This document shows, one piece after another, positions 7,093-52,559 of a DNA stretch of 54,064 nucleotides. Each line of letters opens with the position of its first letter. Within the stretch, counting starts at the first letter, position 1. The notes beneath the pieces are model-generated. The model was not told the origin of the DNA and did not search any database. It saw only the letters and a list, made by a program, of their open reading frames with translations. The translations under genes and the position numbers were made by a program. The DNA is from Verrucomicrobiia bacterium (GTDB taxonomy: Bacteria > Verrucomicrobiota > Verrucomicrobiia > Limisphaerales > JAJOIW01): assembly GCA_030425355.1 (NCBI GenBank), contig JAUIAG010000003.1, forward strand, positions 1 to 54,064, written 5' to 3'.

Positions 7093-7135
7093 GCAGGTTG
7101 GTAATGAGCCCGGTTAATTTTGAAGAGTAAAGATT

Positions 7136-9027: not shown

Positions 9028-9084
9028 GGCACGAAAGTATATCCCCGTCGGAAATTTCTCAAGTTCGCAGGGGAGATGCAGTTA

Positions 9085-10329: not shown

Positions 10330-10454
10330 CTGGATTGGATGCGAGACAGTCTCAAGTATGACACATTCCCCTGCCCCGATGCACGGGTAAATCCCTGTGG
10401 AAGCCGGGCCGGCCATTGAGGCCGGAAAGCCCGGGACTGCGGGGGGCCGGAGAA

Positions 10455-28088: not shown

Positions 28089-28118
28089 ACCTTGAAACTG
28101 ATTCTTCCTGGAGGTGCA

Positions 28119-32059: not shown

Positions 32060-32563
32060 ATGAACAGGGCACCACAAAAACTGATTGCATCAATAAGCCG
32101 TCCGATAGTTCTGGTTATTGCCGGGCTGCTTTGGACTGCGACTTTCGGTGCTGCCGGGGAGAGCCCCGACGGTAATGGAACCATGAATGGCTTCGATCGT
32201 TTCAGGCTCCAGTTTTCACCGCAACTCAAGGAAGGCACGGATGGCAAAAGACAGTCCTCGCCTGTCCGTGAAGCACCCATTGTCACCGGCTATGATGAAG
32301 AACGCCAACCGGGCAACACTCCGGTGCGCACAGCCACTCCGGCCCTCAAAGATTCATACGACCAGGCCCGGACCAATTCTCTGGTAACCATAACCATGCA
32401 GGAAGGGAATATTGTTGTCACATGGCCTGAGGGAATGAGTCTTGAATACACCACCGCCATCGGCCAGCCCTGGCAGCCGCTCACCGCCGGAGGCAACCAC
32501 ATCGTTATCAATCCCGAAAATCCTGGACTGTCCCCAACTTCATTCTTCCGTGCTATAAAATAA
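32060..32563 (+). CDS. Small exported protein: linker plus C-terminal W...FFR domain
   Basis: Signal peptide (IVLVIAGLLWTATFGA); C-terminus IVVTWPEGMSLEYTTAIGQPW...SFFRAIK; GGAG RBS before ATG 32060. Confidence 0.6.
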   Translation: MNRAPQKLIASISRPIVLVIAGLLWTATFGAAGESPDGNGTMNGFDRFRLQFSPQLKEGTDGKRQSSPVREAPIVTGYDEERQPGNTPVRTATPALKDSYDQARTNSLVTITMQEGNIVVTWPEGMSLEYTTAIGQPWQPLTAGGNHIVINPENPGLSPTSFFRAIK

Positions 32564-32649
32564 TACAGAAGGATGGAACAAACGATGGTGAGTGGATCAT
32601 CGGTGATTGGAATCTCCGACAGGCCCCGGATGAGAAACGGGCGGGAATA

Positions 32650-34122
32650 TTATCTGGAATCAGAATCCATGTCTGAATCGGAATACTGACCGGTTCCCCA
32701 GCCACCACCAAGAGTCAGATGAAGGCGAATCCACGCGCGGGTCAGTGCGGTTTTCGCCTGAATCATTTCCAGATTGATTTCATTGCGGCGCAGCTGATCG
32801 ATAAGGAGGTCGAGGAGGCTGATTCGCCCCGCCCCGTACATTTTCTCCGACAGGGACACCGCGGTTTCGGCTGCCCGTGAAGCCTCAGTCCATGACTGGT
32901 AGCGCCTTCGGTGGGCATCCATAGCGGCAATCCCGCTCTCCACTTCGCCAATGGCCTTGATGACAGCCTTTTCATACGCCAGCAGGGCTTCCCTGTTTTC
33001 TGAACGGGCCTGTTCGAGAATCGCTCTGTTCCGCCCTCCGGCGAAGAGAGCCCATTCGATCCGCGGTGCGAACTGCCAGGCGAAACTTGAAGCCTCGAAG
33101 AGATTGACGGCGCTTGAGGAGACCAGCTGCGGCTGGCCCATCAGGTAGAACTTCGGATAGAAGTTGGAGATGGCGACACCGATCCCGGCACTGCTGGCAG
33201 CGAGCTGACTTTCCATCACGCGAATGTCCGGACGACGGCGTATCAGTTGCGCCGGCAGTCCGACCTGAATAAACGGGAGGTCTTCCGGAAAGTCAGTCCA
33301 TGACTCAGCCTGTGCGTCCATGGCGGACGACTCAGAGCCAAGGAGCAGGGTGAGGCGACGGAGTTCATTCACGCCTGCCGACTGGAGTAGTGGAAGCATC
33401 GCCCGGATCGACTCCAGCTGCGATACCGACCGCTCGACATCCAGTTGACTGGCCAGCCCTGAGTCATGCCGGAGTTTAACGAGCTTCAGTGTTTGCTGCT
33501 GAAGCTGAATACTGTCTTCAAGCAGCACCTGCTGTCGGTTGAGGCCAATGATTGACACATAAGTATCGGCAACCTCTGCCGATGTCGACAGCCTGAGGCC
33601 CTCGAGCCCGGCCTCCGCTGCAAGGATGCGGGCCCCGGCAGCTTCCACCGATCTCCGCACTCCACCGAAGACATCAAGTTCCCACGATACGGGTATTCCA
33701 AGAGTCCATTGATCAAACTCGTTGGGAATCAGGCCCTGCTGAGGCGATGAGGTAAAGGGCGCCAGAAAATTGTCACTGTTACGGATCTTTGAAAAGGATG
33801 GAACCGCACTGACCTGCGGCAAACCGGCAGACAATGCCTGCGAGCGGGCCATTCGCGAGCGCTGCAGCCTCTCAAGGCCAATGCGCACATCAAAATTATT
33901 GGTCAGTGCCTGAGAGACGAGCGTGTTGAGGTTGCCATCTCCGAGGGCCCACCACCATGGCGAGTGCGGCAGGGGCGCCTCTTCACTGTCCGAAACCGTG
34001 CCCGGAACAGAATAACCGGATGGCAGACCGAGGTCCGGCCGCCGGTAGTCTGGACCGACGCCGCGGCATGCAGTACACAGCACCAGGCACAGCAGGAGGA
34101 GATATGAATTTCGATATGACAT
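32650..34122 (-). CDS. RND efflux outer-membrane lipoprotein (OprM/NodT family)
   Basis: Lipobox-like LCTAC, VGPDYRRP, WW..LGD, SWELDVFGG, RRPDI, LGGGW. Confidence 0.92.
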   Translation of the reverse strand: MSYRNSYLLLLCLVLCTACRGVGPDYRRPDLGLPSGYSVPGTVSDSEEAPLPHSPWWWALGDGNLNTLVSQALTNNFDVRIGLERLQRSRMARSQALSAGLPQVSAVPSFSKIRNSDNFLAPFTSSPQQGLIPNEFDQWTLGIPVSWELDVFGGVRRSVEAAGARILAAEAGLEGLRLSTSAEVADTYVSIIGLNRQQVLLEDSIQLQQQTLKLVKLRHDSGLASQLDVERSVSQLESIRAMLPLLQSAGVNELRRLTLLLGSESSAMDAQAESWTDFPEDLPFIQVGLPAQLIRRRPDIRVMESQLAASSAGIGVAISNFYPKFYLMGQPQLVSSSAVNLFEASSFAWQFAPRIEWALFAGGRNRAILEQARSENREALLAYEKAVIKAIGEVESGIAAMDAHRRRYQSWTEASRAAETAVSLSEKMYGAGRISLLDLLIDQLRRNEINLEMIQAKTALTRAWIRLHLTLGGGWGTGQYSDSDMDSDSR

Positions 34123-34133
34123 GGGAATTCCGA

Positions 34134-37100
34134 TCAGGCAGCAGGCGCCGGGGATGAATGATCACGGGTTTTGAGTATTGTATACATGGCCGGAGTGAAG
34201 GTGAGCGCCAGCAGGGTTGACCCGCCAACTCCGCCGGCGAGAACAATGGCCAGCGGGGGCCAGAACTGCCCGCCAATGAATAGAAGCAACGGGAGGAAGC
34301 TGCCGATGGTTGTCATGGTGGTGGAAACCAGGTGCCTTGTGGTTGCGTTGACTGCTTTTGCAATCGCCTCCGGATCTCCACCGGCGGCTTCCGGGTCCTT
34401 CATAATGGAAGCAAGCACGACAATGCTGCTGTTGAAAGCCAGCCCCATCAATCCGAGTGAACCGATGATGGTATTGAAGCTGACGGGGAACTGCATGGCC
34501 CATGTGGCGATCAGCCCGAAACCGGCGGACATGGGCGCAGCCATCAGAAGAATCAGGGCGATGCGCACACTGCGGAAAGTCAGGATCAGTACAGCGACGG
34601 TCACCACGATGATCACCGGAAGGTAGAGGAGCAGATTGCCCACCGCCTCATCCCGGTTCTCCGTCTCGCCACCCACTTTCAACTCATATCCAACCGGCAC
34701 TTTGAAACCGGATTGATCGAGAAGCTGCATGACCTCGTCAGTTATATCAACCGCCAGAGTGCCGGACCGCACAAAACCGTGAATCTTGTTGACCCTCTGC
34801 CCGTCACGGCGGGTGATACCACCCTGCTCCGGCACCAGATCGACGGAAGCCACAGAAGAGAGCGGCGTCCAACCGCCATCAGTCGCCTGCGGCAGCACGA
34901 GATTGACGTTGGACAGATCGGCGAACTCATCCCGCTCCGGGGCGGCCATCCGGATCCGAACCGGCAACTCCTCTATGCCCTCCATGACGGTTCCGGAAAC
35001 GGATCCTTCGAAGAGGCTGTCGATCTGCGCGGCGATGTCGCGCAGACTCAGGCCCATCATCCGCGCTTCGGATTCACGGACGGACAGCTTCAGCTTCGGT
35101 TCACCCCGGGGAATAGTCGTCAGGGTATGCAGAATGTCCGGATGTTCGGCGAGTTTAAGTCTCACCTGTTCGCCGAGTTCCTGAAGCACCTGAATATCCG
35201 GGCCGGTGATCCGGAACTCCACATCCGCATCGGCGGGAGGGCCCTGAGCGAACTTCGAGAACAACACCTGGAGATCCGGGTGTTCCTTGTCCGCCTTGTC
35301 CTGCAGGCGGTCAATCATGTCCGTCACAGCCTTGAAGTCAGTCGTGGCAATGATGCCATGGGCATAATTGCGTGCCCCGTCCTGATTCATAATCAGGTTG
35401 TAGTAGACAGTGGGAAAGCTCTCACCGACCATCCAGTCAATCCCGGTGACAGCCGGTTCGGTGCGAATCAGGCTGTCGATCCTTTCAGCTGCCTGTTTCG
35501 TTCTCTCCAGTGAGGCATCGGTTGGCAGGCGGATCTCAACCTCGAACATATTCCGGTCGGTTCTTGGGAAGAACTGACTCCCAAGCGTCGTGGCAAGGAG
35601 AAATCCGGTTACGGGGAGGACAAGAGACAGGCCGACACAGACCCGGCGATGTCTGATGCAGGCGAGAAGAAATCGATTGGCATCGGTGCCACCGGGCTTC
35701 CAGAAGAGTCCGTCACGGAGCCATCCGGGCAGGATGGAGTGTGTTCGGGATTTTCCGAATAGACCGGCGAGTGCGGCAATGACAGTCATCGCGATCAGGA
35801 ATGATCCGCACAGGGCAATAATCACACTGCTGGAGATGGAGCTGACGAAATCGCCGGCCGGCCCCGGGAGGAGGAGGATCGGCAGAAAGGACAGCACCGT
35901 GGTGAGTGTTGATGACAGCAGGGGCAGAAAAAGGTGATGGACGGCGGCGGATACGGCGTCCAGCGGCCCGGCCCCCGCCCTGAGCCCCCGGCGAACTTCA
36001 TCGGTCACAACTATGGCATTATCAATCAGCAAACCAAGTGCGATGATCATTCCGAAGATGGACATCTGATGCAGTTTCCCGCCCTGCATCGCGACGACGA
36101 AAAGTGTGGATGAGGCCACCAGCGGCAGTGCGGTGCTGATAATGATCGAAGCCCTCCAGCCCATGGTCAGCAACACCACGAGAAAGACCACAACCGCTCC
36201 AAGAAAAAGATTGCCTGCCAGATCTCCAAGTCTTGATGAGGTGTATTCATCCTGACTGAAAACCGGAGTGACGGCTATCATCCCGCCGGCTCGTTTTCGG
36301 AAATCTTCAAGTTCCAGCATGGCCCTTGCGGCCCAGAGGTCCACCCTCTGATCGGGCATGACCCTGGCGGCGACGTAGACGGCACCGTCCCCTTCGTGGA
36401 CGCCAAGACTCATGGGCGGGTCCATGATTCCGCGACGGACGCGGGCCACATCGGCAATCCGAACCAGAGCATGTCCCGAGTCAGAGTATCGAAGCGGCAC
36501 TTCCCGGATCCTCTGGACTGATTCGAACTCACCACTGACCTCGATGAGCATGTCACTGTTTTTTCCGCGGACAGCTCCTGAGGGGATCTTGACATCGGCA
36601 TCACGAAGCGCCTGATGCACTTCAATCGGGCTGATATTCATGGATGCCAGCTGGTCGACATTCAGCTCGACGAGTATTTCTTCAGGAATATCCCCGTAGA
36701 GCCTGACCAGCTCAGTCCCGGAGACACCCCGCAGTCTGTCGCCGAGGTTTTCGCCAAGACGTCTCAATATGGCATGATCACCGGCCCGGCCATCCTCCCA
36801 ATGGAGAGCGGTGATAAGGGTGAATGCCACGGCGTTCCTCTTATCATCAAAGGACGGGGCTGTCGCCTCAGGCGGGAACCGGACGGCTGCTTCCCCGACC
36901 TTGTCGCGGATTTCAGAGAACACAGCATCATTGGTTTCCTCATTGATGGCATCGGCCAGCTCGACGGTCACAACCGAGACGCCTGCCCGTGAGACCGACT
37001 CAATGTGCTTGATGGCTGTGATCTCCCTCAGCTCCTGTTCGAGCGGCTCGGAAATAAGGGCCTCGACACGATCAGCGGGTGCACCCGGCAGAAGCGTCAG

Positions 37101-37277
37101 AATCTGTGCATTGCGATTACTGATCACCGGATCCTCAAGTCTGGGCAGACCTTTGATCGCGGAATAGCCGCCCACCATGATCACCAGGATGGTCAGCACC
37201 AACAAGTGCCGGTTGGATACAAACACCTCGGCCAGTGGGTGACTTTTGTCGCGGTGTCCTGAATTCAAGTCGTTCAT
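34134..37277 (-). CDS. RND efflux transporter permease (AcrB/D/F family)
   Basis: 1047 aa; LPRLEDP, GLLIDNAIVV, FFPRTDR, FWPPLA; 12-TM layout. Confidence 0.93.
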   Translation of the reverse strand: MNDLNSGHRDKSHPLAEVFVSNRHLLVLTILVIMVGGYSAIKGLPRLEDPVISNRNAQILTLLPGAPADRVEALISEPLEQELREITAIKHIESVSRAGVSVVTVELADAINEETNDAVFSEIRDKVGEAAVRFPPEATAPSFDDKRNAVAFTLITALHWEDGRAGDHAILRRLGENLGDRLRGVSGTELVRLYGDIPEEILVELNVDQLASMNISPIEVHQALRDADVKIPSGAVRGKNSDMLIEVSGEFESVQRIREVPLRYSDSGHALVRIADVARVRRGIMDPPMSLGVHEGDGAVYVAARVMPDQRVDLWAARAMLELEDFRKRAGGMIAVTPVFSQDEYTSSRLGDLAGNLFLGAVVVFLVVLLTMGWRASIIISTALPLVASSTLFVVAMQGGKLHQMSIFGMIIALGLLIDNAIVVTDEVRRGLRAGAGPLDAVSAAVHHLFLPLLSSTLTTVLSFLPILLLPGPAGDFVSSISSSVIIALCGSFLIAMTVIAALAGLFGKSRTHSILPGWLRDGLFWKPGGTDANRFLLACIRHRRVCVGLSLVLPVTGFLLATTLGSQFFPRTDRNMFEVEIRLPTDASLERTKQAAERIDSLIRTEPAVTGIDWMVGESFPTVYYNLIMNQDGARNYAHGIIATTDFKAVTDMIDRLQDKADKEHPDLQVLFSKFAQGPPADADVEFRITGPDIQVLQELGEQVRLKLAEHPDILHTLTTIPRGEPKLKLSVRESEARMMGLSLRDIAAQIDSLFEGSVSGTVMEGIEELPVRIRMAAPERDEFADLSNVNLVLPQATDGGWTPLSSVASVDLVPEQGGITRRDGQRVNKIHGFVRSGTLAVDITDEVMQLLDQSGFKVPVGYELKVGGETENRDEAVGNLLLYLPVIIVVTVAVLILTFRSVRIALILLMAAPMSAGFGLIATWAMQFPVSFNTIIGSLGLMGLAFNSSIVVLASIMKDPEAAGGDPEAIAKAVNATTRHLVSTTMTTIGSFLPLLLFIGGQFWPPLAIVLAGGVGGSTLLALTFTPAMYTILKTRDHSSPAPAA

Positions 37278-37329
37278 ATCGATTTCCTGATGCGGGTTTC
37301 AGATGGATGATTTCTGCCCTGCTGTCAAT

Positions 37330-38514
37330 TCACTGCCTGTCGACAACCTCGACATGCTGACCGGGTGCCACCCGGTGAACACCGGATGCCACTATTCTTT
37401 CACCGGCTTTCAAAGCTCCCCGCACAATCACTTCGTCCCCCGAAACATGAAGGACCTCCAGTTCCCTGGACTGCAGCTGAGGCAAATCAAAACCGCTTTC
37501 CGATTCCACCAGCGCGTGGACAGTCCAGAGACCGCGGACACTTCCGGTCAGTGCGGAGGCGGGAATTCTGAAACCGGACTCGTTCACCATTTCCGGCCAT
37601 GACCATTCGACCAGTTCTCCGGAAATCAGCCCAGCCGGTTGATCAATCCGGAGAATCACTTCCACGGTCCGTGCTGCCGGATCCAGTCTGGCAATTGTTC
37701 TGTGCACGTGACCGGAAAAAGCATCACCATCGCGCATCCTGGTGAGCTGAACCTCCGCTCCGGGAACAACGCCATGAACTCTCGAGACGGGAACACCGAT
37801 CCGGACTTCAAGATTGCCGGACTCAAGAATCACGAGGACAGGCTGACCGGGCAGAGCAGTGTCTCCCTCATCGGAAAAGCGACGCACGACAGTCCCCGAA
37901 AACGGTGCACGCACAGATGATTTTTCAAGATCCACTCTGACGCGATCGAGTGCCGCCCCGGCGCGGACCACAGCGGCCCTCGCGGCTTCCAGCTGGTTCA
38001 TCAGATCATCGCGCTCCTGCTCCGAAACCGCCCCGTCCGGAGCCAGCCGTTCCACCCGCTCCCATCGCGACTCAATCAGGGCCATCGCTGCTTTCGCCTC
38101 ACTCAGCGCCGCTTCCCTCTGGCGGGATTCGGCCTCCAGCAGCCGCGTGTCCAACCGGGCCAGAAGAGCCCCCTTCTCCACCGCATCCCCTTCATCCACC
38201 AGTATTTCCTCAATGGTCCCGCCCTGTTCAAAACCAGGCCGGCTCCCGCGGGCCGCCTCAACCACGCCAACGTAGGACCGCGGGACCGGGTATCCAGTCA
38301 CCGCCTCAACCACCACCGCCTCCACAGGCATGACCCGGCCGACTCCGGCTCTCCGCGATTCTTCCCCGGACTCACCGGTTTCGCTGCCGGCTGCCCGGCT
38401 GTTCCCCTGCTGGACCAGAACCATACCTGTCACCAGCAAACCAATCCCCCCTGCCACCAGGCCCGGCTTCGATCCCGGTCGAAATATCCGTTTCAAAACT
38501 TCTGGTAAATTCAT
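37330..38514 (-). CDS. RND membrane fusion (periplasmic adaptor) protein
   Basis: N-terminal TM, lipoyl half-motifs VDEGDAVEKG and RAPFSGTV flanking a coiled coil. Confidence 0.92.
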   Translation of the reverse strand: MNLPEVLKRIFRPGSKPGLVAGGIGLLVTGMVLVQQGNSRAAGSETGESGEESRRAGVGRVMPVEAVVVEAVTGYPVPRSYVGVVEAARGSRPGFEQGGTIEEILVDEGDAVEKGALLARLDTRLLEAESRQREAALSEAKAAMALIESRWERVERLAPDGAVSEQERDDLMNQLEAARAAVVRAGAALDRVRVDLEKSSVRAPFSGTVVRRFSDEGDTALPGQPVLVILESGNLEVRIGVPVSRVHGVVPGAEVQLTRMRDGDAFSGHVHRTIARLDPAARTVEVILRIDQPAGLISGELVEWSWPEMVNESGFRIPASALTGSVRGLWTVHALVESESGFDLPQLQSRELEVLHVSGDEVIVRGALKAGERIVASGVHRVAPGQHVEVVDRQ

Positions 38515-38564
38515 AACTCCAAGTCAATTTTTTTGAAAATTTTTGTGCCCGTATGCGGTTGGTT

Positions 38565-39305
38565 TCAGGCCATCGGGCTGCCTTCCGCGAGGGCGGCCAG
38601 TTCATGGCTGAAGACTTCACTGCGGATGCGCAGCCCTGTCTGATCGTAGTCAAACTGGTGGCGCAGGGGCTTCCATCCCGCACCATCCAGGAAAAGATGA
38701 TAATTGAGGTTGAGCATTTCCAGGGGCCGGATGCCCGAGTCTTCAGGGAACATTGAGATATTTTCCTGAAGCAGGTGGGCCCCCTTGGAGAGCGAAATAA
38801 GTCCACTGAGAATCTGCGCTTCGGAGGGCCCGTCGTCAGGCAGCTCCCCGCATTGCCGGGCCTGTCGGATGATCTCAAAGGCCACCTGGATGCAGCGGAA
38901 TCCCACCCGATGGCAGGCATCCAGTCTGGATTGGGTGATTTTCTCCTGGATGGAGCGGGTTTCCATCAGCTGGTGAAGGGATGACCAGTGGGGATATTTC
39001 ATGGCGATAATGTAGTCCGCCCAGCCGACAACAAACATACGCTCGCGGGTGGTGCCGCGGAAAAGCAGTGCCCGCCCGAAAAGCTCGGCACGCAGCTCAA
39101 GATGGCGGAGGTCAACCGCAGCCATCAAATCCTCCTTGCTGTTAAAATGATTGTAGATCGTCGCCTTGGAATACTCAATGCGCTCCGCCAGTTCGTCCAG
39201 ATTCAGGCCGTGATACCCCTGCTCCAGCAGCATCCGATCCGCCTGATCCACAATCAGCCGCTCCCGCTCCGCGCGCTCCCGTGCCTTCCGGTCCGATATC
39301 GTCAC
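38565..39305 (-). CDS. TetR/AcrR family regulator
   Basis: GYHGLNLDELAERIEYSKATIYNHFNSKEDL HTH; first gene of the efflux operon. Confidence 0.92.
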   Translation of the reverse strand: MTISDRKARERAERERLIVDQADRMLLEQGYHGLNLDELAERIEYSKATIYNHFNSKEDLMAAVDLRHLELRAELFGRALLFRGTTRERMFVVGWADYIIAMKYPHWSSLHQLMETRSIQEKITQSRLDACHRVGFRCIQVAFEIIRQARQCGELPDDGPSEAQILSGLISLSKGAHLLQENISMFPEDSGIRPLEMLNLNYHLFLDGAGWKPLRHQFDYDQTGLRIRSEVFSHELAALAEGSPMA

Positions 39306-39326
39306 AAGGCCACATTCATCCTTTTC

Positions 39327-39339
39327 TGACTCAGAGTCA
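39327..39339. promoter_or_regulatory. Putative TetR operator
   Basis: Perfect dyad TGACTC-A-GAGTCA about 20 nt upstream of tetR, overlapping a minus-strand TTGACT -35-like hexamer. Confidence 0.6.
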
Positions 39340-39433
39340 AATTTTTACTTCCTATTTTTCAAATACAGCCAAGCGGTGACAGGCACGCTGGTGTCTTCTA
39401 TCCGGCACCACCTGTTTCACGCTGAACGGCAGT

Positions 39434-39462
39434 AAAAAAAGGCACCCCGGGGAGGGGCGCCT
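39434..39462 (-). terminator. Rho-independent terminator of katG
   Basis: Minus strand AGGCGCCCC...GGGGTGCC followed by T7. Confidence 0.75.
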
Positions 39463-39495
39463 GAATCGGGCATGGGGAGAATGGCGGAGCCGGGG

Positions 39496-41910
<2,415 letters not shown>

Positions 41911-41979
41911 TCAGTCTTCTGTGATCAATGCAATTCTCGAACATCTATTCCAATAATGGAAATTGATTAAAGTTGAAGA

Positions 41980-42002
41980 ATTGATATAATTTTCCAATCA
42001 AT
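41980..42002. promoter_or_regulatory. LysR/OxyR-type dyad in the katG-oxyR divergent region
   Basis: ATTGAT-N11-ATCAAT, plus an extra ATTGAT at 41962, in an AT-rich spacer. Confidence 0.5.
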
Positions 42003-42030
42003 CAGCTTTTGACAGCGATTGGATGAAGTT

Positions 42031-42903: not shown

Positions 42904-42954
42904 GACGGCATCAATATGGAATCCGCGATAATCCCGGAGCTGATTTTCACTCTC

Positions 42955-43953
42955 TCAGGGATTTTTGCGCAATCTGAAGAACAGGGCATTCATATCCGTT
43001 TCGATGGTGTAGACATAGTTATCGCCGTCCACTGTGTATGGCGGCTGTATGTCTTCCCATGCGGTTGGAGAAACTATGGATTCAGCACTCTGCAAAACCG
43101 GGTCTGCCGTGTTGGAAGCGGCCCATGAGACAAGGACATTTCCATTGTCGCCCGGGGATATATGAAGATCAGGGAGGGGATCACCCCCACCATTATCATC
43201 CACTCCAGCCAGACCAAAGAGCGCGGCTGTGATCCCCATCTCTGGAAAACCGGAATTATCGGCCGCCGGCACAGTGCCGGATCCCATCAGATACACCATC
43301 GCAGTCGCATTCATCGACCGGGCAATCGGGATCAGGACGGAATCCACATAGCTGTCTCCGACTCCTGCATCAAATTCTGCAGCCGGGACAACCCATGCAT
43401 TCCCGGAAATATCAAAGCTGCTGGAATTTGCCTGGCCACTGAGAAGAGTTGCTGAAAAATCCACATTCTGGGTGAAAGCCCCACTGGCCACATCATAGCT
43501 GCCGGAATTGACAGCCGTGATCACGGAACTGAACGGACCATGACCTGGAAATGGCTCGGTGCCTGAGACATCCCATCCGAGAATCAACGGTCCGCCGCCA
43601 CCGGAGGCAACCTCCATGTCGATGGTGACGGTATTTCCGCTCTCGAGGAAGGTGACGGCCTGTCGTTCCGGCGGGAATAGATCCGCATCCGGGATGACAC
43701 CCATACCAAAATCAAAGGCATTGTAGCTGAGGGATCCCGCTGTATTCGCAGCGGACCCGTTACTTTGCGAAGGCTCGGCACTGACGACATCATCTGCAGT
43801 CCCAATCATGCCGTCCACGCCAGGCCAGTGGTTGGACAATTCGTCTGAATGAACGAGCGTGAATGTTTCCTGCGCACCGGATGACCGGGTGAATGACAGG
43901 AGCAATACACCGGTCAGGGTGAAAGCTGCGAGACAGGCTGTAGTGTTTTTCAT
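42955..43953 (-). CDS. Exported acidic beta-rich protein with C-terminal W...FFR domain
   Basis: Signal peptide MKNTTACL...SSGA; GVDGMIGTADD possible Ca-binding loop; C-terminus VLVSW...LQSAESI...W...LFFRLRKNP. Track start 44019. Confidence 0.65.
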   Translation of the reverse strand: MKNTTACLAAFTLTGVLLLSFTRSSGAQETFTLVHSDELSNHWPGVDGMIGTADDVVSAEPSQSNGSAANTAGSLSYNAFDFGMGVIPDADLFPPERQAVTFLESGNTVTIDMEVASGGGGPLILGWDVSGTEPFPGHGPFSSVITAVNSGSYDVASGAFTQNVDFSATLLSGQANSSSFDISGNAWVVPAAEFDAGVGDSYVDSVLIPIARSMNATAMVYLMGSGTVPAADNSGFPEMGITAALFGLAGVDDNGGGDPLPDLHISPGDNGNVLVSWAASNTADPVLQSAESIVSPTAWEDIQPPYTVDGDNYVYTIETDMNALFFRLRKNP

Positions 43954-44188
43954 ATATTTTCTGATCCTATTTATTCCCTGGCTGAGCAAAATAAATTCGG
44001 ACGGCCGATCAGGATTCATCCATCATTCCCTGACCGGGACCACTTTCAGAAAAATATAATACAACCAGGTATTCAAGCATCATATTGAATAAACTGAATT
44101 GATTCTCATTGGCCTCGACATGCATGGAGGCCCCGAAGGAGGGATGACCAGGAGATTCCGGTATCTCATATAGCAGGCGGGATCCGCG

Positions 44189-45328
44189 TCAGATGATGAG
44201 GTCAGGGTTCTCCCAGAAAAGTTCCGCCAGTCCGAATGACAGGGTCATCCCGGCACCGCCGGGAGCCAAAGAAATCCAGCACTGCGGCGCTATCTGGTGA
44301 TGGTGGATGAGTTTATGAGGGTGTTTGACATAAATACCGGACCACCGTTCCGCGATAAGCCAGTGCGGCGGCCTGATGAGGCGCCGAAGTTCGCGAATAA
44401 TGAGGTCGTCAATCACCTGTTTGTCGAAGGGTGAGATGTCCCCGTCATATTCGTGGGAGTCACCGAGAACCAGTCCGCCGCCCGGTCTGCTGATCTGACT
44501 GGCCATGACGTGGATGCCGAACCGGTCCAGCTCCGGAGTTTCGGCGGCTATGCGTTCGGCAAGCTGTTGCAGTGACCCGCAACGGGAAAACGACGGGTAA
44601 TGACGAAGACACAGTCCGGAGGCAATTATCGGCCCCTGATCCAGTCCGGGCATGGGCTGCGTCGCCATCATCTGGAGTTTGCAGCGACGCAATCCAATTT
44701 CCTGGAGGTGTCCGGGAAAGAGTGTCTGGAGATCAGCTCCCGGGCAGACGATAACCCTGTCGCCTCGGAACTGCCCGCCATTGGCACACCGCACCACATT
44801 ATCCTCAACGGAGACAGCCGGGCTCCCCCAGTGAAAACCCACTCCATACTCCCTGGCGAGCCATCCGGGAATTCGTGCGATGGCTTCCCGCGGATTGAGA
44901 TTGCATTCCCGGGGTGAAAAGAGCCCGCCGATGACATGATCCGGGTTGGCGAGTGGAGAGGCATCCAGTGCTTCACGCCCGGAAAGCAGCACGGCCTCGC
45001 TGTCCCTGGACTCGGGGAGAGAAAGGAACTCTTCCATAACTGCCAGCTCGTCATGCCGGGTTGCCAGAAACAGCAATCCACATGGGAAAAACGGGAACCC
45101 GGCGCCGGCAGCTGCCTCCGTCCACCGTTGAGCACTGATGGCAGCTGCCTTTGTCGCCAGACCCTCAGCCATGCCGGTCGGCAGGAAAATTCCGAAGTTC
45201 CGAATGGACGCCCCGCGCGCGACCGGATCGCCCTCGATCACTTCCGCCTTCCACCCTGCACGGGCAGCCGCCAGAGCATGTGCCAGTCCGTGAATACCCG
45301 CACCGATGATGACAACCGTCTGCACCAT
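44189..45328 (-). CDS. TIGR03364-family FAD-dependent oxidoreductase (phosphonate-cluster associated)
   Basis: IIGAGIHG, GASIRNFG, CKLQMM, LGDSHEY, W.G.Y, GGAGMTLSFG. Confidence 0.85.
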   Translation of the reverse strand: MVQTVVIIGAGIHGLAHALAAARAGWKAEVIEGDPVARGASIRNFGIFLPTGMAEGLATKAAAISAQRWTEAAAGAGFPFFPCGLLFLATRHDELAVMEEFLSLPESRDSEAVLLSGREALDASPLANPDHVIGGLFSPRECNLNPREAIARIPGWLAREYGVGFHWGSPAVSVEDNVVRCANGGQFRGDRVIVCPGADLQTLFPGHLQEIGLRRCKLQMMATQPMPGLDQGPIIASGLCLRHYPSFSRCGSLQQLAERIAAETPELDRFGIHVMASQISRPGGGLVLGDSHEYDGDISPFDKQVIDDLIIRELRRLIRPPHWLIAERWSGIYVKHPHKLIHHHQIAPQCWISLAPGGAGMTLSFGLAELFWENPDLII

Positions 45329-45576
45329 GGAAGTTTACGGACTGCCGGGCGGAAGTGGAAGGAGATGTTCAAAGCAGTACAAACTGACTTGCGGGAAAAA
45401 TAAGGATTATGTCGTCCCGATGCATAGGAGTGGCCCCGGAGGTGGACAAAGAAAAGCACTGATCGACTGCCTGAGAGGCATCACGGCGGGATCTGCCCCG
45501 CCTGACGGGAAGGCAATGTCAATCAGGGCAGGTCTCCGACAAAGAGTGGTAACACTGGATGAAAGGTCGAGTTGCA

Positions 45577-46062
45577 TCAATCATTGCCGGGGGAGACGGC
45601 CTGATTGTCCTCTTCTCTGAGCGGGAAGGCGATGGGGAAGATGAGGATCCATGCAGCGGCAAAAAGCGGGAGGTTCTTTATGATGTACTGCCCCTCGAAG
45701 GTAGGGGCGAAAGGGAAGAACTTGAAGCAGAATTCGGGCAGAAGGAAGAGTGGCATGAAGGTGCCGATGATGTGGAAGTTGAGGAGGAAGAATATGAGGC
45801 GCGGAAAGAGGCAGGTCATGAGACCGACGCCGATGGCGCATTCGAGTGTGGCGAGGAGTGTGAGGGCGGTGCGGGTTTCCAGAGCAAATCCACTGAGCTG
45901 ACCGAGGGTGTATTCAGCGATCATTTCAGCCGGACTGAGGTCTGGGAAGAACTTGAGGAGGCCGAACTGGAAATACATGAACCCGACAAGCAGCCGGAAG
46001 ACGTCGCGTGACCAGCGTTCGATACCGGCCCGATCGATGTTGAGAAAAGGCATGCGGGCCAT
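45577..46062 (-). CDS. DoxX-family membrane protein
   Basis: FGLLKFFPDLSPAE, E..IG, PTFEGQYIIKNL; starts 3 nt after the cytochrome c stop (track start 46074). Confidence 0.75.
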   Translation of the reverse strand: MARMPFLNIDRAGIERWSRDVFRLLVGFMYFQFGLLKFFPDLSPAEMIAEYTLGQLSGFALETRTALTLLATLECAIGVGLMTCLFPRLIFFLLNFHIIGTFMPLFLLPEFCFKFFPFAPTFEGQYIIKNLPLFAAAWILIFPIAFPLREEDNQAVSPGND

Positions 46063-46064
46063 CT

Positions 46065-47633
46065 TCAGAGGCACAGGAGAAACGCCACCAGATCGTCCTT
46101 TTCCGAGCGGGAGAGTTGGAGTTCCAGCACCAGGTTGAAGAATTCGACTGCATCGTGGAGGGTCGGGGCACGACCGTCATGCAGATAAGGCGGGCTGTCC
46201 CTGATCCCGCGCAGCGGGAATGTCTTGATCGGCCCCTCGGGGCGTCCGACGTAGAACCGCTCGACTTTCAGGTCGTGCATGTAGTCATCGACGAAGGCCG
46301 GACCGTAGTGGCAGGCGGAACACTGGGCTTTGCCGTGGAACAGTTTTTCCCCCCGCAGCTCCTGCTCTGTTGCCATCGATGGAATAAGCCGCATCATCGG
46401 GCTGAGTTTGGGAGCGGGAGGATAGTCGATGATGGCATTGAAATCCGCCATGCGGTTGGAGACCTCGCGTTTGACGGCTCTCGGGCCGATTGCCTGCTGC
46501 ATCCCCGGATCCCCATCAAAATATTCCTCGATTTCAGCAAAGTGATCGAGACTGCGGATAGACCGCTTGGAGGAAAGCTGCATCAGATTGAAATTTCCGC
46601 GCAGGGTCGGTGTATCCACGCGCAATCGGGCCATGTTCGGCCGCGAATCCGGGCCGAGTTCAATGGCGCCGTTGGTGTGACCATTGACATGACAGTCGAG
46701 GCAGGCGACGCCATCGGAAGGCTGACTGGTCAGCCGGTGCTGCGTCTGATTGAACCACGTGGTGGGTGACGGGCGCAGCAGTTCCTTGAGACCCTCCATC
46801 TGCTCCGGCGTGATCAACCCGTCAAATATTTCGTAGTAATTGTCAAAACTGATTTCCTGTCCGCCTGAAATGTCTCCGAGTTCCTTATGAGTTGTCAGAA
46901 ACAGGGGCGGAGGGAACTCGGGGAGGTAGGCATCGGGAAAATCCATGTCCACATCGATGCGCTTGTGCTCGGGATGCACGGCAGTCCACGAATCCGGAAA
47001 AAGCATGTGGGCCGTCGTCTGGATGGGATGCGCCAGTGGCTTGTAGGGGAAAAGATCGCGACGGCGGATTTCCTCCGCTGTCAGACCGGCAAGTGACTCA
47101 TAGGACTCCACCTCCGCCGGGAGCCTGGCAACCGGCCCGGCCATCACTGCCTTCCGGCCTCCGGACATCATCTGTCCGGGTATCACCGCGCCACTGAAGT
47201 TGAACCGTGAGTTCATGTAGGCCCTCACGTCCTTCATCAGCTCGGGCTTCTGCTTCTGATGAAATTCAATCCACTGATCAAAGCGCATGGGCAGCACAGG
47301 AGTCCCGAATGTCGTCTTGCCCTTGCCGTAGTATCGCCAGAGATCAAAAGGCGTGCGCAGGCCCTTTTCGACAGCCGGATAGAGCCTGAGTTCATCGGTG
47401 GTGCGGTACATCGGCAGATTCTCCCCGGAAACCTGCACAGGCTTGAGGCTTCCGACCGGTGAAGGATTTCCGACAGAGGCATGCGCCGATGAAATAAACC
47501 CGCCGGCACCGTGTCGCGATTCCGGAACCCGGCTCAATCCGGAGCCTTTGTACTGCTGATAGGTCATCCATGTCTGCAGCGCGAAAAGCAGCAGAAATAC
47601 TATGATGGCCGTCTGTTTCCAGGTCTGTTTCAT
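46065..47633 (-). CDS. Exported di-heme cytochrome c (cytochrome c peroxidase/MauG-like superfamily)
   Basis: Two CxxCH motifs (CLDCH, CSACH), DTPTLRG, GEKLF.GKA.C, TFPLRGI..SPPYLHDG. Confidence 0.8.
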   Translation of the reverse strand: MKQTWKQTAIIVFLLLFALQTWMTYQQYKGSGLSRVPESRHGAGGFISSAHASVGNPSPVGSLKPVQVSGENLPMYRTTDELRLYPAVEKGLRTPFDLWRYYGKGKTTFGTPVLPMRFDQWIEFHQKQKPELMKDVRAYMNSRFNFSGAVIPGQMMSGGRKAVMAGPVARLPAEVESYESLAGLTAEEIRRRDLFPYKPLAHPIQTTAHMLFPDSWTAVHPEHKRIDVDMDFPDAYLPEFPPPLFLTTHKELGDISGGQEISFDNYYEIFDGLITPEQMEGLKELLRPSPTTWFNQTQHRLTSQPSDGVACLDCHVNGHTNGAIELGPDSRPNMARLRVDTPTLRGNFNLMQLSSKRSIRSLDHFAEIEEYFDGDPGMQQAIGPRAVKREVSNRMADFNAIIDYPPAPKLSPMMRLIPSMATEQELRGEKLFHGKAQCSACHYGPAFVDDYMHDLKVERFYVGRPEGPIKTFPLRGIRDSPPYLHDGRAPTLHDAVEFFNLVLELQLSRSEKDDLVAFLLCL

Positions 47634-47842
47634 CCTCGGTGATAATCTATGTCGCCAGCCCCGAAGTGCTCCGGGACATGCCGGCTGAGAACGGTGCCGC
47701 CCGGCAGCTGGCGGTGTTACTCGATCAGGAATTTACAAAGAATGACAGGTCCGGCGCCCATGGTCAAGACAGGGCCTCCCGCAACTCCCGCCGGCCCCGG
47801 CCATGAAACAGATCAAATCGCCCCACTCTTCCGGAATCAAAC

Positions 47843-47875
47843 CTGACACAGGAATGTCACACGACTGCAAAAACG
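47843..47875 (+). promoter_or_regulatory. Pho-box-like repeats upstream of the DUF5690 gene
   Basis: CTGACACAGGA-ATGTCACACGA-CTGCAAA, 11-nt period. Confidence 0.5.
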
Positions 47876-47917
47876 GAATCAAATTGAACCGCGAGAATTA
47901 CGGTCAACGCGGCACTT

Positions 47918-49225
47918 ATGGCTTCCGAATCAGAACAGTTTAGAGGATCACCCTTCCCGATTTCCCGCTGGTCACCGCACGGCACGCCCTTCGCGGTGTG
48001 GTGCATGGTGGCGGCCTTCGGCACCTATTTCTGCATGTACGGACTGAGGAAGCCATTCACCGCCACGACCTATGAAGGACTGCAGGCCTTCGGAATGGAC
48101 CTTAAATCTCTGCTGGTGGTGGTGCAGGTCATTGGCTACATGCTGTCAAAGTTCATTGGAATCAGGGTCATTGCCGAGATGGCCCCGGAGCGCAGGGTTC
48201 GGGGGATACTGGTGCTCACCTCGGTGGCATTGGCCTGCCTGCTCGGATTCGGGCTGGTCCCACTGCCATGGTCGGTGGTGTTCCTGTTTGGCAACGGCCT
48301 GATGCTGGGGATGATTTTCGGGCTCGTGCTGGGATTCCTGGAGGGCCGCCGGATGACCGAAGTGCTGGCCGCCGGACTTTGCGCCAGCTTCATTCTGGCG
48401 GATGGCGTGACCAAATCCGTCGGGGCCTGGCTGATTGACCGGGGCATTCCGGAAACGTGGATGCCCTTCGGTGCCGGCATGGTCTTCATGATCCCTCTGC
48501 TTGGCTTCCTCTGGATGCTGGGCCAAATACCGGTGCCGGACCAGCTGGATCAGGAGGAGCGGCAGCAAAGAGTGCGGATGGATGCGGCGGACCGGAGACG
48601 ATATTTTCTGCACTATGCCCCCGGCCTGTCGGCCATTATCGTCGCCTACCTGCTCATCACCCTCATACGGAGCCTCCGCGCCGACTTCGCCCCCGAAATC
48701 TGGAAAAGCCTCGGAGTTGAAACCACTCCCAGGCTTTTCTCACTTTCGGAAACATGGATCGCCCTGGCCATCATGCTCTGCAGCGGACTCTTCTCCCTCT
48801 ACCGCAATAACAGACTGGCACTTTTTCATGCCATCGCCGCTTGCATGCTCGGACTCGCCCTGCTGCCGATTTCCATGGCCGCCATTGACGCAGGATGGAT
48901 CGCGCCTTTCCAGTTCATGGTTCTCGTCGGGCTGGGACTGTACCTGCCATACGTCCTGGTCCACACGACTCTGTTTGAACGCATCATGGCAGTGACCCCG
49001 GATAGAGGAAATATCGGCTATCTCATGTACCTCGCCGATTCCATGGGATACCTCGGTTACGTCATTCTGGTGCTGTTCAGGGACCGGCTCCCCGGACCGG
49101 AAGACCCTCTGCAATTCTTCCGCGCCCTCTGCTGGATTGCCGGCAGTCTCGGATTTATCACTTTCGGTGCAGCCCTCGTCTATTTCCTCTTCCGACTGAG
49201 GACAGTGCCGCCAAACAGGGCGTGA
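47918..49225 (+). CDS. DUF5690-family MFS-like membrane protein (phosphonate-cluster associated)
   Basis: AAFGTYFCMYGLRKPF, GYMLSKFIGI, LEGRRMTE, KSVG, FER, GN.GYLMY.AD..GYLG; about 11-12 TMs. Confidence 0.8.
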   Translation: MASESEQFRGSPFPISRWSPHGTPFAVWCMVAAFGTYFCMYGLRKPFTATTYEGLQAFGMDLKSLLVVVQVIGYMLSKFIGIRVIAEMAPERRVRGILVLTSVALACLLGFGLVPLPWSVVFLFGNGLMLGMIFGLVLGFLEGRRMTEVLAAGLCASFILADGVTKSVGAWLIDRGIPETWMPFGAGMVFMIPLLGFLWMLGQIPVPDQLDQEERQQRVRMDAADRRRYFLHYAPGLSAIIVAYLLITLIRSLRADFAPEIWKSLGVETTPRLFSLSETWIALAIMLCSGLFSLYRNNRLALFHAIAACMLGLALLPISMAAIDAGWIAPFQFMVLVGLGLYLPYVLVHTTLFERIMAVTPDRGNIGYLMYLADSMGYLGYVILVLFRDRLPGPEDPLQFFRALCWIAGSLGFITFGAALVYFLFRLRTVPPNRA

Positions 49226-49551
49226 GGTGAGAATTCCATCCAAAGCGGCTCAAAACGGGTGGAATGAGTGTCGCCTCTCCTCCTCAAAAACCCGGAAAAA
49301 CCGCTGACCAGGCAACGAGAACGGTTTCCAGATTTCTGCCTCTCCCCGGAGTGGGAGACAATCCTGTCCCCCCAAGAACAAAGCTCCGGAACAATGCAGA
49401 CCGGGCACATTTACATTTTTTCGAAAAAAAATGTCTCACCGCGGCCCGGTTTATCGCTTTCGATACGTGAGCGCTGTCCATTGGACAGAATCAAAATGAG
49501 AATGCGGTCTCCGATCAGTTGAAATTGGCGCAGCAGAACCAGAATCAGAAC

Positions 49552-51282
49552 ATGAACCACGATCGTCACAACAGAGGCGCTGCCCTGACGGGTTTGTCAA
49601 AGGGTGGCTGCGTCTCTGTGGCCGCGTTCCTTCTGCTGGTGAATACCCTCACTGGAATCATGGCGGCGACAGTCGACTTTCCGGTGCCCGGGACGCGTGA
49701 GGAATGGATTTGTTCTGCCTCGGCAATCGAGTTGGCAGAACGTATCAGGGATGGCGGGCTGACGAGCGAGGAAGTCGTTTCGCAATTTCTTCGGAGGATA
49801 ACTGTGCTCAATCCTCAGATTGGAGCGGTGGCGTTTCTGAATCCCAAAGCCCTGGATGAGGCCAGGGAAGCCGATCGGCTGCTCTCGGCTTTTCATGCAG
49901 GACAGGGTAGCATTCCGGGCTCCGGGACCTGGTACCCGGGGAGACTGCACGGCGTGCCATTCACCGTTTCCGACCTTTTCGACACCGCCGGGATGCCGTC
50001 CACAGCGGGCACGGAAGGACGACGCGACTACATCCCTGAAAGGGACGCCATCGTGGTCAGCCGGCTGCGTGCGGAAGGAGCGATTCTGCTCGGCAGGACA
50101 GTCTCGTCAGAACTCGGCCTTGGATGGAATTCCGGCAACCGCATCCACGGTTCACCGGCAAATCCCTATGACAAAGACCGCCGGGCAGGAGGATCAAACT
50201 GCGGCGGGGCGGCCCTGGTTGCGGCTTGCGGAACCCCTTTTGATATCGGGATCGATCTGGGTGGCGGCATCCTCCTGTCAGCACACTTCAATGGAATCTT
50301 TGGCCTGAAAGCAACATGGGGTCGGATTCCTCTCACTGGATCGATTCTCTCGGCTGTCCCGAAACTCACCGCACCCGGCATTCTCGCCCGCTCAGTGGAA
50401 GACATTCAATTGGTGCTCGGGATTCTGTCGGGAAGTGATTCCTCGGACCCCTTCAGCTCGGACCAGCCACTGGCCGACTTCAGGGAGGTGAATACCCGAC
50501 AGTTGAGACTGCTTGTTCGTTTTGAAAATTCCAGTCAGCAGCTCACCTCTTTACGGATGTCACGCCTCCTGAACAGAACAAGGGATCATTTCGTTTCCCG
50601 GGGTGTTCCAGTCATCAACAGAGAAATGGGATCGAGGCGGGACCATACCGGCTATGACCAGTTCAACAAACTGTTCTTCCTTAATTCCAACGGGTTCAGA
50701 ATCAATAAGTTACTCAACGAGTCGAAAACAGAAACAACACGGCTCTCGAATGAGCTGCACACCTATGTGCAGCACTGGAAAGAGTACCTGGCGAACAGGA
50801 AACAGGGACACTATTTTGAATTCAACGCGATGTGGTATCCCTATTGGTTTCCAGCGTATCTCAGCGGGGATCTGGCTGATGCTGTCATCGGACCGGTTTA
50901 TTCCTCCGGATCCCCGACGGATCACGAAGTTATAGATCCGGCCCGCATAGGAGTGATTGAATGCACCATATCCGGGTGTCCGGCAATCAGTATCCCCGCG
51001 GGCACGGATGAGTTTGGCATGCCGCTCGGCATAGCGATGGCAACCTACTCATGGAAGGAGGCCATGCTGCTGGCACTGGCACAATCGGTTCAGGAGTCAG
51101 GCGGTGGATGGAGTGCTCCCGGAGTGAAAATCAGAGTATCCGGGACGGGGCAGGAGCTCAGCATCCTCGGGACCGGAAAACTGCTCAGGGCTGAAGACCC
51201 GGGCGGTCCGTGGCAGCCGGCTTCACTCTCCGATGCCATTAATCAGTCTCCCCGTCAGTTTTTTAAATTGAAAAATTTATGA
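49552..51282 (+). CDS. Exported amidase-signature-fold protein with degenerate catalytic triad and C-terminal W...FFK domain
   Basis: LHGVPFTVSD, NPYD...AGGSN, DLGGGI, GIFGLK.T.GR, G.PLG. Track start TTG 49519. Confidence 0.8.
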   Translation: MNHDRHNRGAALTGLSKGGCVSVAAFLLLVNTLTGIMAATVDFPVPGTREEWICSASAIELAERIRDGGLTSEEVVSQFLRRITVLNPQIGAVAFLNPKALDEAREADRLLSAFHAGQGSIPGSGTWYPGRLHGVPFTVSDLFDTAGMPSTAGTEGRRDYIPERDAIVVSRLRAEGAILLGRTVSSELGLGWNSGNRIHGSPANPYDKDRRAGGSNCGGAALVAACGTPFDIGIDLGGGILLSAHFNGIFGLKATWGRIPLTGSILSAVPKLTAPGILARSVEDIQLVLGILSGSDSSDPFSSDQPLADFREVNTRQLRLLVRFENSSQQLTSLRMSRLLNRTRDHFVSRGVPVINREMGSRRDHTGYDQFNKLFFLNSNGFRINKLLNESKTETTRLSNELHTYVQHWKEYLANRKQGHYFEFNAMWYPYWFPAYLSGDLADAVIGPVYSSGSPTDHEVIDPARIGVIECTISGCPAISIPAGTDEFGMPLGIAMATYSWKEAMLLALAQSVQESGGGWSAPGVKIRVSGTGQELSILGTGKLLRAEDPGGPWQPASLSDAINQSPRQFFKLKNL

Positions 51283-52559
51283 ACCACAGGGAACACCACA
51301 CTCTCAGATTTGGCGGATGCGTCATCCCTGTCCCGGTCAGCCGGAACAGGATTTTAGTCCTGAGCTTCATTGTGAATTTCCTGTGGGCTCCGGTGAATCT
51401 TGTGTCCTATGAATCGTTCATCACGGTGGATGATCCAAGTGGGCCAAACAGCACTTTATTCAGCAAATACACGCTGAACGACAATAACACTCTCACGCTT
51501 GAATGGAATGGAAATCCATCTTTTGTCAGACTGGAGTACACAGGAAGACTCTCAGACCAGTGGTATAAGGCGCACTTTCCCGAATACATTACCTGGGTGG
51601 ACCGGGAACAGACTATTGTGCCATTGAGTGACTCACAGGCTTTTTACCGTCTGGCTGTTTATGACGAGGCTGTGAAAAGGCTCCCGGTGAAACTTCTCGT
51701 CCCGGATCACCTCCGCGAAACGACAAAAGTCCCCCTGATTATAGCGCTGCACCCGTGGTTCACATCGGCGGCTTACCTGGATCAGAGCCAACTCCCGCTG
51801 AGCAGCTATTATAATGACTTCAATGGGGACGGATATATCTTGGCTCTGCCCGACGGGTTGCGGGATAGGGGCACTGCGCGCTACTTCTCCCCGGAGACCT
51901 CTGAATACGGTGAATTTCACCGTGACGGAGCCAGAGGCTGGAACGCACACCCTGGATGTTGCAAGGATGAAGGAGACCAGTGGGTGGATGACATCCACTA
52001 CATGCAGCTTTTAGTGAACCGGATTGTTTCTGAATATCCTGTCGACAGAAGAAGAATTTACATCGTCGGGATAGAAAACGGTGCGCACATGGTCCATTCC
52101 TGCCTGAAACGGTTCAATTACATCTTCGCTGCCGGTGTGGCCATCAACGGAACAACCAGTTCATGGCTTGATGATTTTGGCGCTACTGCGACAAACACCG
52201 CCATTCTGCAGATTCACAGTCGATATGACCCGCGTGCGCTTTACAACGGTGGTGGGTATGGAGTTTTCCCGGGAAGTTTCGCTGGAGTGGAGGACACGTT
52301 GAATGCCTGGGCTGAATCCATGGAAATTGAAGGCAACCTGATTCCCACCGGTGAAACCCTCGACCTGGATCTCGATAACCCGGGAATTGATACGGATACT
52401 TTCCGATTTCCGGACTCGGATAGAATTGAACTCTGGGCATTACGGAGTGGCAGTTCACATCGTCCCGCGTTTGTAAAAAAGGAAACCGGCGACCAGATCA
52501 CTGTCGGTGATGCACCCCGCCTCATTCTTGAATGGCTGTTCCGGTTTCAACTGGAATAA
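51279..52559 (+). CDS. Exported alpha/beta-hydrolase-fold protein (PHB depolymerase/LpqC-like) with Ser-to-Glu nucleophile and N-terminal W...FYR domain
   Basis: PLIIALH, PDG, WNA..GCC, DDIHYM...VD..RIY..GIENG..M, LQIH...D, GSSH; ATGA overlap with the upstream gene. Confidence 0.75.
   Translation: MNHREHHTLRFGGCVIPVPVSRNRILVLSFIVNFLWAPVNLVSYESFITVDDPSGPNSTLFSKYTLNDNNTLTLEWNGNPSFVRLEYTGRLSDQWYKAHFPEYITWVDREQTIVPLSDSQAFYRLAVYDEAVKRLPVKLLVPDHLRETTKVPLIIALHPWFTSAAYLDQSQLPLSSYYNDFNGDGYILALPDGLRDRGTARYFSPETSEYGEFHRDGARGWNAHPGCCKDEGDQWVDDIHYMQLLVNRIVSEYPVDRRRIYIVGIENGAHMVHSCLKRFNYIFAAGVAINGTTSSWLDDFGATATNTAILQIHSRYDPRALYNGGGYGVFPGSFAGVEDTLNAWAESMEIEGNLIPTGETLDLDLDNPGIDTDTFRFPDSDRIELWALRSGSSHRPAFVKKETGDQITVGDAPRLILEWLFRFQLE

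Follow-up and report, generated by a model that had tools for sequence, protein, structure and literature searches.

An uncatalogued Ig/FN3-like domain at the ends of exported Verrucomicrobiota proteins, with a putative sorting or docking role

We describe a small protein domain, here called the tail, that is found in four proteins (P0001 to P0004) encoded on contig JAUIAG010000003.1 of a Verrucomicrobiia bacterium (assembly GCA_030425355.1). The window, that is, the whole stretch of DNA analysed, is one entire contig of 54,064 nucleotides in a host genome (G000) of 5.4 Mb in 488 contigs. By one housekeeping protein, its nearest named relatives are uncultured Verrucomicrobiota metagenome-assembled genomes, at 60% identity. 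The tail is an uncatalogued domain of about 50 to 70 residues, a module joined to many unrelated leader-bearing proteins and nearly always their last domain. It is immunoglobulin (Ig)- or fibronectin type III (FN3)-like and widespread in one phylum, and a sorting or docking role for it is plausible. An earlier note, made from the sequence alone, had interpreted the four segments as a lineage-specific sorting or anchoring tag. The part of that interpretation which stands is a shared, largely phylum-confined, unassigned and C-terminally enriched domain. The link to a secretin, of which the window has none, finds no support, and internal copies speak against a strict C-terminal signal. New here are a connection with Ig_7-type repeats, the domain arrangement in the esterases, the swap of tail forms between orthologs and the negative tests of candidate machines.

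The four peptides are present where the earlier note had placed them, copy 2 on the minus strand and copy 4 in frame from about 51462. P0001 (32060..32563, plus strand; ATG at 32060 in a 186-residue open reading frame (ORF) that is open from 32003) consists of a leader, a linker of about 85 residues and the tail domain. Its short-form copy 1 (32372..32560, plus strand) ends in FFRAIK before the stop. The linker has no family match in Pfam or NCBIfam, and P0001 has zero homologs among 60 other genomes of the order. P0002 (42955..44019, minus strand, 354 residues) has a leader, a body without a Pfam family and copy 2, a long form of about 70 residues (42958..43185, minus strand) that ends in FFRLRKNP before the stop. 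P0003 (49519..51282, plus strand, 587 residues) has a leader and an amidase domain (PF01425, residues 85-518), followed by a C-terminal extension some 50 residues long. This extension holds copy 3 (51115..51279, plus strand), a degenerate short form that is the weakest member of the family and ends in FFKLKNL. P0004 (51279..52559, plus strand, 426 residues) has a leader, the domain and an esterase body like that of polyhydroxybutyrate (PHB) depolymerases. Here copy 4 (51462..51656, plus strand) is N-proximal, directly behind the leader, and an insertion precedes its last two strands.

Three of the four copies are thus at the extreme C-terminus, with 3, 5 and 4 residues after the motif Arg or Lys in copies 1, 2 and 3, respectively; copy 3 has Lys in place of Arg. 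The translated sequences also agree with what had been read in them before: the first Trp is missing in copy 3, P0001 is little beyond leader, linker and tail domain with no other family match, and a hydrophobic N-terminal leader is found on all four proteins when judged by eye. The carriers are otherwise unrelated, being an orphan (P0001), an unknown protein (P0002), an amidase (P0003) and a PHB-depolymerase-like esterase (P0004). Because the stop codon of P0003 and the ATG of P0004 overlap (ATGA, 51279-51282), the amidase and the esterase seem to be translated together as parts of one operon. About 190 nucleotides separate the stretches that encode the P0003 tail and the N-proximal copy of P0004.

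All four segments very probably belong to one domain family. Taken alone, the similarity among them would not count as significant, as leave-one-out profiles of three segments miss the fourth in each case (0/4 at E ≤ 10 among 77,100 genome ORFs). The four-segment profile picks up the C-terminus of a 938-residue protein on another contig (E 1.1e-6), and its iteration converges at 19 domains in 18 ORFs, mostly at the very C-terminus. Such iteration is circular for its own seeds, and profiles were therefore built without window sequences. The first of these, made from 14 other own-genome copies, gave E-values of 0.13 for P0001 and 3.1 for P0002 and did not find P0003 and P0004; it was set aside as too narrow for the window copies. 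The broad profile holds 229 segments with zero from the window, namely 219 from the 150 best public representatives and 10 long-form tails of relatives, and was scored on whole ORFs (Z=77,100). It finds copy 1 at 30.3 bits (E 1.4e-6), copy 2 at 26.4 bits (E 2.1e-5), P0004 at 12.2 bits (E 0.58) and P0003 at 9.9 bits (E 3), and all four matches are in register at the places named in the earlier note. Scoring of the isolated segments gives 15.8 bits for the P0003 tail and 17.6 bits for that of P0004. Among 5,242 reversed C-tails no score exceeds 9.1 bits, among 2,955 internal windows the top two scores are 12.9 and 7.7 bits, and not one of 3,000 shuffles of the P0003 tail, or of 3,000 of the P0004 segment, equals the real score. 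Thus the window-free profile, the decoys and the shuffles bear out the proposal of one domain common to four unrelated proteins.

The individual copies were also compared with relatives. Copy 1 aligns with the alignment of own-genome tails (A2) at an hhalign probability of 92.1% (E 6.2e-7). The copy 2 tail alone matches regions in 17 of 60 other genomes of the order; all 10 of the matches fetched end 0-1 residues before the stop, and in the Atlas look-up it is nearest to Verrucomicrobiota fragments (0.95). The P0002 ortholog in genome G053 (L019, G053:C188, ORF 1444-2373) has a body that is 53% identical and ends in a short-form tail (40.4 bits). The tail module has been exchanged between P0002 orthologs, with the long form in P0002 and the short form in G053. 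Copy 4 aligns with alignment A3 end to end over 58 columns (hhalign 27.6%). In genomes G005 and G006, esterases about 30% identical to P0004 have a canonical copy immediately ahead of the esterase body (58-59 bits), and P0004 is collinear with them through domain and body (99.2% over 327 columns in a profile alignment at a permissive setting). The esterases with an internal domain are L042 (G005:C35), L043 (G006:C21) and L044 (G005:C247). In L042 the domain is preceded by repeats with the pattern VDYATT..GTA, which look Calx-beta-like by eye.

Copy 3 probably belongs to the family as well. We consider it unlikely that copy 3 is an unrelated extension sharing a few residues with the family by chance. 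Such an origin would account for the whole-ORF result (9.9 bits, E 3) and for an hhalign probability of just 41.9% (P 2.7e-4), yet the alignment runs end to end over 48 columns, and the 15.8 bits of the segment as a C-tail beat all 5,242 reversed decoys and the 3,000 shuffles. It ranks 28 of 5,242 C-tails, and nearly all its neighbours in the ranking show the family motif. An AlphaFold2 (AF2) model of copy 3 made with the family alignment has a predicted local distance difference test (pLDDT) score of 68.6 and two clear strands only, which speaks for an unrelated extension and against membership; this model is not independent evidence, since the family alignment already assumes homology. In the same direction, the P0003 tail finds only itself among 5.8 billion proteins in the length range searched (322-1028 residues), and its Atlas score is 0.82, a lead only. 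On the other side, the segment is appended exactly at the position typical of the family. This piece of about 50 residues is absent in 13 own-genome amidase paralogs and in 8 amidase ORFs of genome G022, where the chain stops with the amidase fold. This amidase family forms expanded tandem arrays, with 15 matches in G000 (contigs C389, C332, C462 and C334) and 9 in G022 (L116, G022:C9:25000-40000), and among these amidases only P0003 carries a tail.

The family extends far beyond the window. A search with the own-genome tails (A2) finds, out of 1.84 billion, 7,470 representative clusters at E ≤ 1e-3; the count falls to 450 at E ≤ 1e-10 and to 3 at E ≤ 1e-30. Among the best 150 of the 7,470 representatives, 99 have a single matched stretch, and in 98 of these 99 it ends within 5 residues of the C-terminus. 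The last copy lies within 6 residues of the protein end in 135 of the same 150, and by eye at least 5 of the 15 exceptions finish with an additional copy that has diverged more. The end of the chain is itself fixed: the motif is seen in 129 representatives, and 118 of these stop 2-4 residues past its conserved Arg. The host genome gives a similar picture. An iterated profile finds 21 domains there at E ≤ 1e-3, of which 17 lie no more than 5 residues from the stop. All reversed decoys are outscored by 45 of 5,242 C-tails and by only 1 of 2,955 internal windows. In 85 ORFs, versus 17.5 expected, the motif [FY][FY]R[LVIAFSTGM] starts in the last 16 residues. A leader was flagged by a crude rule in 30 of 34 complete carriers of this genome, and by eye in 3 of the other 4.

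The cargo is diverse. Carriers contain LamG, PA14/GLEYA, Ig, Big, cadherin-like, HYR, PKD, malectin, CBM6, F5/8C and beta-helix domains, and they also include GH115, RCC1, FGE-sulfatase, esterase and amidase proteins; 26 of 74 representatives scanned have no Pfam family at all. The tail itself has no Pfam or NCBIfam model, on scans of the window proteins at E ≤ 1, which leave the four segments uncovered, and of 25 tails at E ≤ 10. Full-text searches of the literature turned up no account of the family; the one related text is a remark in the Akkermansia preprint discussed below.

In taxonomic range the family stays largely within Verrucomicrobiota in the genomes searched. A2 matches in 27 of 31 genomes of the order, and a wider alignment (A5) matches in at least 48 of 151 sampled genomes of the phylum. 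The number of A5 matches per genome is at least 25 in G000 and up to at least 24 in another genome of the phylum. Two named Verrucomicrobiota metagenome-assembled genomes have 24 and 37 matches. Outside the phylum, 1 of 81 Planctomycetota genomes matches, and weakly, and there are zero matches in one Pirellulaceae, one Ignavibacteria and one Electrothrix genome. These searches uphold three earlier claims: that the domain has no assigned family, that it is largely restricted to a lineage and, strongly so, that it is enriched at the C-termini of leader-bearing proteins.

With respect to fold and origin, the tail is a small Ig/FN3-like beta-sandwich that is homologous to Ig_7-type repeats and is cut off after the FYR(V/L) strand. 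The AF2 model of the P0002 tail, made with 10 relatives, is all-beta (pLDDT 83.8, predicted template modelling score 0.70), with strands at 17-20, 26-31, 39-43, 60-62, 65-70 and 78-82. Its best Foldseek neighbour is the FN3 domain of Tie1 (E 0.052), and FN3 domains of DCC and DSCAM are also matched; the template modelling (TM) score is at most 0.58. In VIA-align the best Z is 6.1; a tied score beneath this is shared by cytokine-receptor FN3 domains, ZP-N, Ig domains and CBM56. A beta-glucan-binding domain is also found among the structural neighbours, together with CBM56. A search of PDB sequences with A3 gives nothing better than E 0.24, and its matches, a discoidin-type module of a glucanase/chitosanase and alphavirus E1, were taken as chance. 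A complex prediction for two P0002 tails scores 0.01 and gives no support for self-association; it was counted neither way.

The short form (about 50 residues) and the long form (about 70 residues) are homologous (hhalign 97.1%, E 5.4e-11). In public data the top summed scores belong to proteins with arrays of a repeat of about 93 residues with the pattern QWQSA..GPWtdI.GAT..Y....FYRV, which Pfam names Ig_7 in P0022 and P0055. The tail profile matches P0055 at residues 327-377, inside the Pfam Ig_7 match at 318-395. The own-genome tails (A2) align with 44 repeat units at an hhalign probability of 97.5% (E 5e-12), and the repeat runs about 29 columns further. Since the tail ends right after the [FY][FY]R[LV] strand, it lacks the last strand of the Ig_7-type repeats. 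Judged from these alignments, the tail does not appear to be an invention without relatives but a cut-short relative of Ig_7/FN3-type repeats. One public representative, P0005 (3372 residues), has the longer Ig_7-like repeat in 10 or more units, and it also has an M43 peptidase domain, SprB repeats and a terminal CHU_C type IX signal domain.

The tail shares the Q/L-S-A, GPW, GA(T/S) and FYRV motifs with the Pfam Ig_7 (CHU_C associated) repeats (PF19081). However, it stops 2-4 residues past FYR(V/L) where the repeat continues for the further columns, and it is found once or twice at the protein end whereas the repeats form internal arrays. The Pfam Ig_7 model (84 positions) matches 0 of 25 tails at E ≤ 10, and the homology is visible only in profile-profile comparison. 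With fn3 (PF00041) the tail shares the small beta-sandwich, and FN3 domains head the Foldseek list, but at 50-70 residues the tail is shorter. The fn3 model matches 0 of the 4 window proteins at E ≤ 1 and 0 of 11 tails; 1 of 14 own-genome tails is matched, at E 0.0014.

Another explanation of the family is that the tail is a plain structural or ligand-binding Ig module, such as one that binds glycans like a CBM, which is terminal simply because it is easily added there and which has no sorting role. Homology to spacer repeats that form arrays of 10 or more agrees with this, as do the presence of CBM56 and the beta-glucan-binding domain among the structural neighbours and the richness of the carriers in lectin-type domains (LamG, PA14, F5/8C and malectin). 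The place of the domain ahead of the catalytic domain in esterases also fits a plain module. However, easy addition alone explains poorly the extreme positional bias, with 98 of 99 single copies at the very end, the fixed chain end, the occurrence on enzymes whose substrates are unrelated (an amidase, an esterase and an FGE-sulfatase protein) and P0001, which consists of little else. We regard a plain module as rather unlikely.

We favor a sorting or retention module. It fits because of the extreme end bias, the fixed chain end, the presence of one or two copies, the leaders, the unrelated cargo and the swapping of tail forms. In the mechanism that we suggest, Sec would export the carrier via its N-terminal leader, and the folded tail, as an address or retention module, would then keep the cargo on the cell surface or at the outer membrane. 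The tail may bind a shared partner in the envelope by way of its open sheet edge and near-invariant Arg, and would not be a cleaved linear signal. As the function of the tail, docking or retention at the surface after Sec is a tentative proposal to which we give somewhat less than an even chance. The explanation as a whole, an uncatalogued, cut-short Ig-like tail family that acts as a surface address or retention module, we judge to be the best available, with a likelihood only slightly short of even.

Several observations weigh against this explanation. Tandem doublets are common at the C-termini of the representatives, and a free C-terminus is therefore not always needed. At least three copies in the host genome are N-proximal, just behind the leader (P0004, C27 and C408), and in G005 and G006 the domain is also internal, right before the esterase body and behind other repeats. 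Such internal and N-proximal copies argue against a strict C-terminal secretion signal. In the same A5 search, 103 of the 151 genomes of the phylum have no match. The structural matches are generic: on a check for the seven-strand FN3 fold, Foldseek gives E 0.052 with TM at most 0.58, and the VIA Z of at most 6.1 mixes Ig, FN3 and CBM folds. The exposed sheet edge is deduced from alignment to the longer repeats, not from coordinates, and the docking role draws entirely on position and cargo statistics.

A close known parallel is the C-terminal domain (CTD) that belongs to the Bacteroidota type IX secretion system (T9SS). Like the tail, it combines a Sec leader with a C-terminal Ig-like sandwich on many unrelated exported proteins. 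PMC4804311 describes it as a seven-strand Ig-like sandwich; unlike that seven-strand form, the tail is without the last strand of its longer relatives, and internal copies exist. The tail could be an outer-membrane translocation signal of the same kind, recognised in the periplasm by a putative Verrucomicrobiota machine and maybe then cleaved. The logic of leader, terminal sandwich and diverse cargo described for T9SS CTDs (PMC4804311) would match, and so would a chain end tightly fixed at 2-4 residues past the Arg. A 2025 preprint on Akkermansia muciniphila likens the last domain of the surface-bound sulfatase Amuc0953 to the T9SS CTD, reports cell-bound activity for this enzyme and suggests that Akkermansia may have a T9SS-like system (bioRxiv 10.1101/2025.09.11.675649), which also favors a translocation signal. 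By description, the CTD of Amuc0953 is like the tail in being the last domain of a Verrucomicrobiota enzyme.

The searches for such machinery do not favor it. SprA_N (PF14349) has no match in five tail-rich Verrucomicrobiota genomes (G000, which is 95% complete, G005, G006, G214 and G215), other T9SS parts not being searched, whereas the Ignavibacteria genome G213, used as positive control, matches at E 9.4e-49. The models of the T9SS CTD, PF18962/TIGR04183 for type A (Por_Secre_tail) and PF13585/TIGR04131 for type B (CHU_C), match no window protein at E ≤ 1 and 0 of 25 tails at E ≤ 10. The Verru_Chthon pseudopilin cassette was rejected as a candidate machine, with only prepilin N-terminal motifs matching and none at the cut-off in the host genome. 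Tail genes are not enriched beside prepilin-type genes (4/61 versus a null mean of 2.5, P 0.23). Together with the internal and N-proximal copies, these results make a translocation signal of this kind unlikely. In another report, type II secretion of a pectate lyase depends on several loop regions, a key one of them apparently in its Fn3 domain (PMC7949064). The earlier note had named the secretin cluster as one candidate for the routing machine, and this proposal finds no support: the window has no Secretin domain (PF00263), only a PilM-like gene and a truncated TPR protein, and the 4 Secretin domains of the genome are all on other contigs.

A further idea is that the tail is the tag of a strand-complementation pathway. 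By analogy with donor-strand exchange for pilus subunits, a sandwich that is one strand short would receive the missing strand from an outer-membrane receptor or translocon, and dozens of unrelated Sec-exported proteins per cell would be captured at the surface in this way. We consider this pathway very unlikely.

Docking modules such as dockerin and SLH are also comparable with the tail, as each is a terminal module common to diverse exoproteins that would fasten them to one shared partner. Dockerins consist of helical repeats that bind calcium, whereas the P0002 tail model is all-beta. Neither the dockerin model nor those of SLH and other surface-docking modules match a window protein at E ≤ 1. 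The four C-termini are also unlike those of PEP-CTERM/exosortase substrates, as by inspection they are without a PEP motif or hydrophobic helix.

Verrucomicrobiota are major polysaccharide degraders in soil, sea and gut. Thousands of the proteins that they export end in this uncatalogued domain (7,470 clusters), which is a handle on the surface placement of exoenzymes and adhesin-like giants in this phylum. The tail can be used as a reporter fusion, a mutation target or a bait, and a family model would annotate a recurrent uncovered region in many genomes. If the tail is a sorting or anchoring tag, it would mark a new envelope pathway for a whole phylum. If it is a plain Ig-like cap, the gain would be better annotation only.

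The window also holds a PEP-CTERM-type cluster on the minus strand (5683-10416), which comprises genes for a sugar transferase (5683-7092), an EpsI-like DUF3485 protein (7136-7882), the exosortase EpsH (8032-9027) and a GT4 glycosyltransferase (9085-10416). Beside it on the same strand, the region 2-5421 has the PilM-like gene (3535-5421), the TPR protein that runs off the contig end (2-1258) and two ORFs without a family match. At least 36 ORFs of about 250-320 residues in G000 start with a prepilin-type N-terminal motif (for example on C429, C129 and C407 at 11827-11916), and one such ORF is in the window (11767-12552), also with DUF1559. An expansion of this kind is typical of the Planctomycetota-Verrucomicrobiota-Chlamydiota (PVC) group. 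In the regions 26643-29741 and 32650-41844 there are two sulfatase genes side by side and, farther on, a catalase-peroxidase-like gene and an efflux operon of the TolC-AcrB-MFP type that includes a TetR regulator, all of them ordinary.

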